A stretch of 64,000 nt of DNA, taken from the sequence record PZ452583.1. One strand, 5' to 3'. The notes under the pieces are model-generated. The model did not search any database. It saw only the letters and a list, made by a program, of their open reading frames with translations, and was not told the origin of the DNA. The position numbers and the translations under genes are program-made. Of this stretch, positions 48,196 through 48,651 are shown in pieces; position 1 is the stretch's first letter; each line of letters opens with the position of its first letter. This stretch comes from a phage.

Positions 48196-48651
48196 TTATT
48201 TTAAATCGTCTGCCCAATCAAGCTTAAGAGGTTCTTTGTATTCACGATCTAATACGACCGGAATTTGTACATCACCGCTAAATGATAAGGGCCCAACATT
48301 ATAAGACAATGTTATATGCGGTGTGTAATCGTCAAAATCATGTGTAGCACCTAGCGCCCGCGCATACATGTGTCGACAGCGCAGATATTCAGAATCTAGT
48401 ATAAGTACAAGAGTAGATCCATCTTGTGTTTTCCATACTTCTAAATGTCCAGAAGAAGCTACTTCAAAACTTCCGCTTGATGGAACATACGGAACATTTA
48501 CTCTTGAATAACATATAGTCGAATGAATTTTTTCTCTAGGAACTGGATTAGGAACGCGTAAAGAGCGCTGAAGTTCTTCCAGCGCATCAAGTGTTAATTC
48601 TGAAAACTTAGCTGCTACATAAAGACCCGTTGAAAAGTCTTTAAATTCCAT
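48196..48651 (-). CDS. 57B: 57B protein, predicted 2H phosphoesterase (LigT-like)
   Basis: ORF track 151 aa; two H-x-T/S motifs (HSTICYS and HITLSY); position after 57A as in T4. Confidence 0.65.

Follow-up and report, generated by a model that had tools for sequence, protein, structure and literature searches.

The 64,000-nucleotide stretch of phage DNA analyzed here (record PZ452583.1), referred to below as the window, comes from a Tequatrovirus (T4-like) genome. When 1.2 kb around gene 57B was used as a query, 622 phage records matched, and the best of them, both 98.6% identical, were those of Shigella phage ESH35 and Escherichia phage MLF4. The gene order is that of T4, 4-2-3-1-57A-57B-ip-trna.x-tRNAs. 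On the minus strand, gene 1, encoding dNMP kinase (48893-49657), lies upstream of 57A, the tail-fiber chaperone gene (48651-48893), and 57A lies directly upstream of 57B (48196-48651, minus strand), an ORF of 151 amino acids that runs from ATG to TAA and was assigned as acb1 from the list of ORFs, its Pfam match, and its match to T4. The junction sequence shows that the 57A stop and the acb1 start overlap in TAATG (48649-48653, minus strand), which implies translational coupling of acb1 with 57A. In T4, the corresponding junction reads ATGATG, with a TGA stop; in the window, a G>A change gives a TAA stop and the first ATG is gone. The window protein starts at the second of the two tandem ATGs of T4, and its length is therefore 151 amino acids, compared with 152 in T4.

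Downstream of acb1 is an internal-head-protein gene of 85 amino acids (47865-48122, minus strand), and past it, on the same strand, lie four small ORFs and then the tRNA block. The internal-protein gene is of the ip5 type (PHROG 3499), not T4 ipI, and nothing in the window matches the ipI stretch of T4; an ip5-type gene in the ipI position illustrates cassette replacement at the locus next to acb1. A 69-nucleotide direct repeat (47812-47880 and 48143-48211, minus strand; copies 86% identical) flanks this gene; both copies start within the final codons of the gene upstream of them, and both of the encoded proteins end in DLK. A TTTACA-N17-TACTAT motif that overlaps a hairpin is present in each copy; for the copy 3' of acb1, the motif lies at 48182-48154 (minus strand), and the hairpin has 13 bp (-17.4 kcal/mol, z = -3.25). 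The stems differ between the two copies, yet both still pair. For PeSL-type elements, with the consensus TTTACW-N17-TAYWAT for the T4/PST pair, a role in the shuffling of genes in T4-type genomes has been put forward (PMC4122927), and the repeat copies, judged from their sequence, fit the PeSL promoter/stem-loop cassettes of T4-type phages. The PeSL-like cassette that starts in the last acb1 codons (48143-48211, minus strand), recognized by its repeat, promoter motif, and hairpin, marks the point where the gene 1-57A-acb1 block ends on its 3' side and the variable internal-protein region begins. A scan for sigma-70 promoters and terminators around acb1 found 15, against 15.3 expected in shuffled sequence, and thus no excess.

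An earlier note on this DNA had singled out two catalytic H-x-T motifs in the 57B product. Read from the translation, these are HSTICYS (residues 43 to 49; nucleotides 48505-48525, minus strand) and HITLSY (residues 112 to 117; nucleotides 48301-48318, minus strand), with a spacing of 69 residues from H43 to H112 in the 151-residue protein. The first catalytic triplet is encoded by CAT TCG ACT (H43, S44, T45; 48517-48525, minus strand; H44/T46 in T4 numbering) and the second by CAT ATA ACA (H112, I113, T114; 48310-48318, minus strand; H113/T115 in T4 numbering); both were assigned from sequence, conservation, and the published work on T4 (PMC9117128). By itself, an H-x-T pair is weak evidence for a phosphoesterase. 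When the 57B protein was shuffled, an H-x-[TS] pair 50 to 100 residues apart appeared in 6.5% of shuffles, and such a pair is found in 2 of the 74 window ORFs of at least 100 amino acids; among those ORFs, 57B is the only one in which both motifs have hydrophobic, 2H-like flanks. Conservation was examined by aligning the window protein with 24 homologs (25 sequences), with identity down to 26%. The invariant columns include both catalytic histidines and the second threonine (H43, P111, H112, T114, and L115), and T45 is retained in at least 90% of the sequences. We take the motif pair as real, not chance, because the catalytic residues are conserved across this alignment, and on this point the earlier note was right.

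The family assignment was made with Pfam. PF23474 (Acb1) matched residues 8 to 149 over the full model (positions 1 to 144 of 144), scoring 202.4 bits where the cut-off is 27 (E = 3.3e-60). The LigT-type model PF13563 (2_5_RNA_ligase2) reached 12.2 bits (E = 0.19), below its cut-off of 27, and that match spans only residues 98 to 122, around the second HxT. The check for a 2H family that the earlier note proposed thus returned one, Acb1, while the LigT type it had in mind stayed below threshold; the window protein is a member of the Acb1 family within the 2H superfamily, not of the LigT family. PF23474 is also present on 75 of 76 database homologs, these being all 75 that have a precomputed Pfam hit, and several homologs are named "Anti-CBASS protein Acb1" in UniRef. 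A sequence search of the PDB gave Acb1 of Erwinia phage FBB1 as the best match (7T26/7T27, E = 5e-62); no NCBIfam model matched the 57B protein. The ORF at 48196-48651 is almost certainly acb1 (T4 gene 57B), the gene for anti-CBASS protein 1 (Acb1), which is a small 2H phosphoesterase with a single domain that the phage produces during infection; no observation in this analysis speaks against this.

The fold was predicted with AlphaFold (AF2) from the 25-sequence alignment, a single-sequence run having given an unusable model (mean pLDDT 36.5). The alignment-based model has a mean pLDDT of 90 and a pTM of 0.83 and is disordered only at the first five and last four residues. A Foldseek search against the PDB placed Acb1 (7T26) at rank 1, with TMq 0.87, TMt 0.96, and a root mean square deviation (rmsd) of 0.9 Å over 136 columns at 68% identity, followed by the Burkholderia phage BCSR5 phosphodiesterase, at a TM of about 0.64 to 0.69. 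The earlier note had rested its own test on a predicted bilobed 2H fold with both histidines in the cleft, and the outcome favors the note: the model superposes on 7T26, a solved 2H enzyme. Further down, at TM values of 0.4 to 0.6 and 12 to 18% identity, are the classical 2H enzymes E. coli LigT, Thermus TT0787, a Pyrococcus 2'-5' ligase-like protein, a Deinococcus 2',3'-cyclic phosphodiesterase (CPDase), and Usb1, and in the same TM range mouse hepatitis virus (MHV) ns2, rotavirus VP3, and a plant CPDase. Enzymes of the 2H superfamily carry out metal-independent transesterification and hydrolysis by way of 2',3'-cyclic phosphate chemistry. The C-terminal segment L144-K151, which includes W146 (W147 in T4) and with its stop codon occupies 48196-48219 (minus strand), is the counterpart of the Acb1 substrate lid. 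Its sequence is the same as in T4 Acb1, and the low pLDDT of the last block of the model is consistent with a flexible lid.

The nearest characterized protein is T4 Acb1 itself (gp57B, NP_049750.1), which is identical to the window protein at 150 of 151 residues and is likewise encoded between 57A and an internal-protein gene. The sole substitution, I84 here for V85 in T4 (V85I in T4 numbering), is conservative and lies inside a β-strand, in a column that is variable in the family alignment. Hobbs et al. (2022) infected cells with T4, purified from them an activity that degrades 3'3'-cGAMP, and identified gene 57B as its source, naming the product Acb1; crystallography revealed a compact 2H fold in which central β-strands form a U-shaped pocket and residues 145 to 152 a C-terminal lid, and in which Y12, W74, F107, and W147 stack on the ligand, E141 makes an adenine-specific contact, and the scissile phosphate is placed over the H44/T46/H113/T115 tetrad (PMC9117128). 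The T4 residues Y12, H44, T46, W74, F107, H113, T115, E141, and W147 correspond to Y11, H43, T45, W73, F106, H112, T114, E140, and W146 of the window protein, so that none of the catalytic and ligand-contact residues described for T4 Acb1 is lost (9 of 9 kept). In the same study, an H44A/H113A mutant was inactive, activation of the CBASS effectors tested was blocked by Acb1, cAAA was cleaved and cA4 was not, and an acb1 deletion grew normally without CBASS and was reduced, by more than 300-fold, only on CBASS-positive hosts (PMC9117128). An independent study by transposon sequencing classed 57B/acb1 as dispensable on K-12, whereas on a host with CBASS it was depleted. Sequence and model give the window protein its identity, its family membership, its predicted fold, and its full set of functional residues; substrate range, mechanism, and the CBASS-dependent defect were established with the 99%-identical T4 protein and, by analogy, would extend to the window allele. 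We infer, safely in our view, that V85I leaves activity unchanged and that this allele would be active like T4 Acb1.

Two other phage enzymes of the group are more divergent. Erwinia phage FBB1 Acb1 (7T26, apo; 7T27, with the 3'3'-cGAMP product) has 66 to 68% identity to the window protein and superposes at an rmsd of 0.9 to 1.4 Å; it shares the HxT/HxT tetrad, the family, and the fold but differs in a one-residue insertion after the fourth strand, in a Phe at the W73 stacking position, and in a Tyr at F106. The Burkholderia phage BCSR5 phosphodiesterase (9Q2G, 9Q2Y), also named "Anti-CBASS protein Acb1," belongs to the same group of phage 2H phosphodiesterases as a distant member, with about 19% identity to the window protein, the TM values given above, and a longer chain (165 amino acids); its structures show open and closed states of the lid. 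Outside the phages, MHV ns2 and the C-terminal domain of rotavirus VP3 (4Z5V, 5AF2, 4RPT) are viral 2H enzymes that follow the strategy of Acb1 in destroying a nucleotide messenger of host immunity. As structural neighbors of the window protein they are weak (Foldseek ranks 25 to 38, about 12 to 13% identity), and unlike Acb1 they act on linear 2'-5' oligoadenylates, in animal hosts.

The tRNA block lies about 3 kb from acb1 and contains ten genes, for Arg, His, Asn, Tyr, Met(CAT), Thr, Ser, Pro, Gly, and Leu (44274-45220, minus strand). The T4 array has eight genes; the window adds His, Asn, and Tyr, is without tRNA-Gln, and has no segB, the homing-endonuclease gene that interrupts the array in T4. 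Homology to the T4 rnaC/rnaD region is present at about 43561-43905. Between the tRNA array and the trna.3 homolog are two minus-strand ORFs, 45935-46450 (171 amino acids) and 46743-47123 (126 amino acids), which have no counterpart in the T4 stretch compared (gaps in blastn colinearity) and match only unknown-function PHROGs, 2290 and 4301, and no Pfam model. Six ORFs separate the tRNA array from acb1; Pfam matched none of them, and PHROGs gave only families of unknown function and the internal head protein; no RNA-repair partner is hidden between the two. Searches of the whole 64-kb window by tblastn with T4 Pnk (PseT), RnlA, and RnlB found no homolog (best E = 0.65), a search with T4 Stp gave no match, and the MLF4 annotation within 20 kb on either side of 57B lists no RNA-repair gene, its only "RNA ligase" being 57B itself. 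In the T4 genome, PseT, RnlA, and RnlB are at 134.0, 136.3, and 108.6 kb and 57B is at 74.0 kb, a separation of 35 to 63 kb. The "tRNA and RNA-repair neighborhood" of the earlier note is thus borne out for the tRNAs but not for the repair genes.

We asked whether tRNA linkage is a trait of the Acb1 family and rejected this, since it is absent at five loci of distant homologs. In unrelated phages with Acb1 homologs at 26 to 38% identity (loci L006, L007, and L008), neither a tRNA gene nor an RNA-repair Pfam domain was found in the flanks fetched, up to 10 kb on each side; the 38%-identity homologs sit in a RecT/ribonucleotide-reductase phage and the 26%-identity homolog in an rIIB-bearing phage. 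Two further loci (L010 and L011) have no tRNA gene, on contigs that end just past the acb1 homolog. T4-like contigs at 49% identity retain only the gene 1-57A-acb1 linkage, and in the window itself a variable region edged by the repeated promoter/stem-loop cassettes separates acb1 from the tRNAs. Because there are no repair genes in the window and no tRNAs by the distant homologs, we regard the tRNA adjacency as Tequatrovirus synteny, not a functional link.

These observations bear on the function first suggested for 57B, that of a LigT-like 2',3'-CPDase or 2'-5' RNA ligase that would heal cleaved tRNAs, together with the adjacent tRNAs, against PrrC-type anticodon nucleases. The LigT, TT0787, and Pyrococcus 2'-5' RNA ligase-like enzymes (5LDI, 1IUH, 1VDX) do share the two H-x-T/S motifs and the 2H fold with the window protein, which is chemistry common to the superfamily, and LigT, TT0787, and other 2',3'-CPDases are among its distant structural neighbors (Foldseek ranks 6 to 21); the nearby tRNA array and the legacy "RNA ligase" annotation point the same way. 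However, these enzymes are only 12 to 18% identical to the window protein, at a TM of about 0.5, and are about 20 to 30 residues longer, and LigT superposes on the model (TM 0.46 to 0.59, 12 to 16% identity) at an rmsd of 6 to 9 Å, compared with 0.9 Å for Acb1. Their substrates are RNA ends or nucleotides with a 2',3'-cyclic phosphate, whereas those of Acb1 are cyclic oligonucleotide second messengers, and the residues of the pocket are the ones used to hold a cyclic dinucleotide. T4 counters PrrC-type nucleases with Pnk and Rnl1, encoded by pseT and rnlA about 60 kb from 57B, and Pnk itself provides the 2',3'-cyclic phosphodiesterase step of tRNA repair (T4 record); Pnk, Rnl1, and Rnl2 all lack a homolog in the window. 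T4 lacking acb1 grows normally in the absence of CBASS (PMC9117128). The second step of the Acb1 reaction does hydrolyze a 2',3'-cyclic phosphate, but one on the enzyme's own intermediate, and the chemistry of the tRNA-healing proposal is right only so far. With the LigT-type Pfam score below its cut-off and the distant homologs free of tRNA genes and repair domains, we consider this function highly improbable. Of the note's LigT-like assignment, the superfamily, both motifs, and the fold stand; Pfam, structure, and the identity to T4 place the protein in the Acb1 family instead. Its proposed role in processing or repairing cleaved tRNAs does not survive for a characterized anti-CBASS nuclease whose tRNA linkage is not conserved and whose neighborhood lacks repair genes, nor does the supposed relevance to host anticodon-nuclease defenses, which T4 meets with Pnk and Rnl1.

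The probability that the H-x-T pair is a chance feature of an ORF without phosphoesterase function is negligible; the motif pair arises in 6.5% of shuffles, but its catalytic residues are conserved across 25 sequences, the PF23474 match is full length, the 2H-fold model is confident, and mutagenesis of the equivalent T4 residues has been published (PMC9117128). An extension of the anti-CBASS function, rather than an alternative to it, is that Acb1 also blunts other defenses whose signal is cyclic tri-adenylate or a related ring containing adenine, such as cA3-using type III CRISPR. This is possible, though we lean against it: T4 Acb1 cleaves cAAA but not cA4 (PMC9117128), and in published work overexpressed acb1 perturbs Panoptes, which monitors cyclic-dinucleotide depletion, whereas deletion of acb1 from T4 had no effect on Panoptes defense; an in vivo anti-CRISPR effect of Acb1 is not reported in the literature covered. 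A second physiological substrate beyond CBASS, either 2',3'-cyclic-phosphate RNA ends left by metal-independent host ribonucleases or type III CRISPR cA3 in vivo, seems unlikely, and we retain the idea because the second reaction step is already a 2',3'-cyclic phosphodiesterase step. If the opening of such RNA ends proved true, the RNA-healing idea would gain a partial basis.

The anti-CBASS function of 57B leads to the following proposed mechanism. A host CBASS cyclase would sense infection and make cyclic di- or trinucleotides (3'3'-cGAMP, cUA, cAAA, cAAG) that would trigger a suicide effector. Acb1 would hold these rings in a U-shaped pocket of stacking aromatics (Y11, W73, F106, W146), read one adenine through E140, and cover the bound ligand with its C-terminal lid. 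Metal-independent acid-base chemistry at the H43/T45 and H112/T114 tetrad would follow, in which the 2'-OH of adenosine attacks the 3'-5' bond to give a 2',3'-cyclic phosphate, and this is hydrolyzed to a linear 3'-phosphate product. With the signal destroyed, the effector would stay off and the phage cycle could be completed. The defense countered by 57B is cyclic-oligonucleotide signaling (CBASS), not PrrC-type anticodon nucleases.

A second anti-CBASS gene is found about 12 kb from acb1 in the window, where an 88-amino-acid ORF (35852-36118, minus strand) matches PDB entry 7UQ2, "Vs.4" (E = 8.5e-55). T4 Vs.4 is the cyclic-nucleotide sponge Acb2. The anti-CBASS pair of T4 is thus complete in this phage, with Acb1 as the nuclease and Vs.4/Acb2 as the sponge; T4 is reported to carry both genes. 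The adjacent ORF, 35574-35852, was considered as Acb2 and rejected, since it matches a different PDB chain (9wiw_A) and 35852-36118 is Vs.4. This minus-strand ORF of 92 amino acids lies directly upstream of regB, in the T4 vs.3 position, and the 109-residue chain it matches (E = 2.3e-38) was deposited as "Endoribonuclease."

The gene, fold, mechanism, and biological role of 57B are already known, having been published in 2022 for a protein one residue different. The label "RNA ligase" nevertheless persists in RefSeq (T4 NC_000866, MLF4, PP01, Sf23, and others) and in PHROG 755, whereas UniRef and Pfam name the same gene Acb1. We conclude that "RNA ligase" is a legacy misnomer for 57B and that the conflict is one of annotation, not of data. 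Such a stale name can misdirect automated annotation, and the value of the present analysis is corrective: reasoning from sequence alone, on the basis of H-x-T motifs and nearby tRNAs, arrives at the same wrong function, RNA ligase or tRNA repair, as the RefSeq and PHROG labels.
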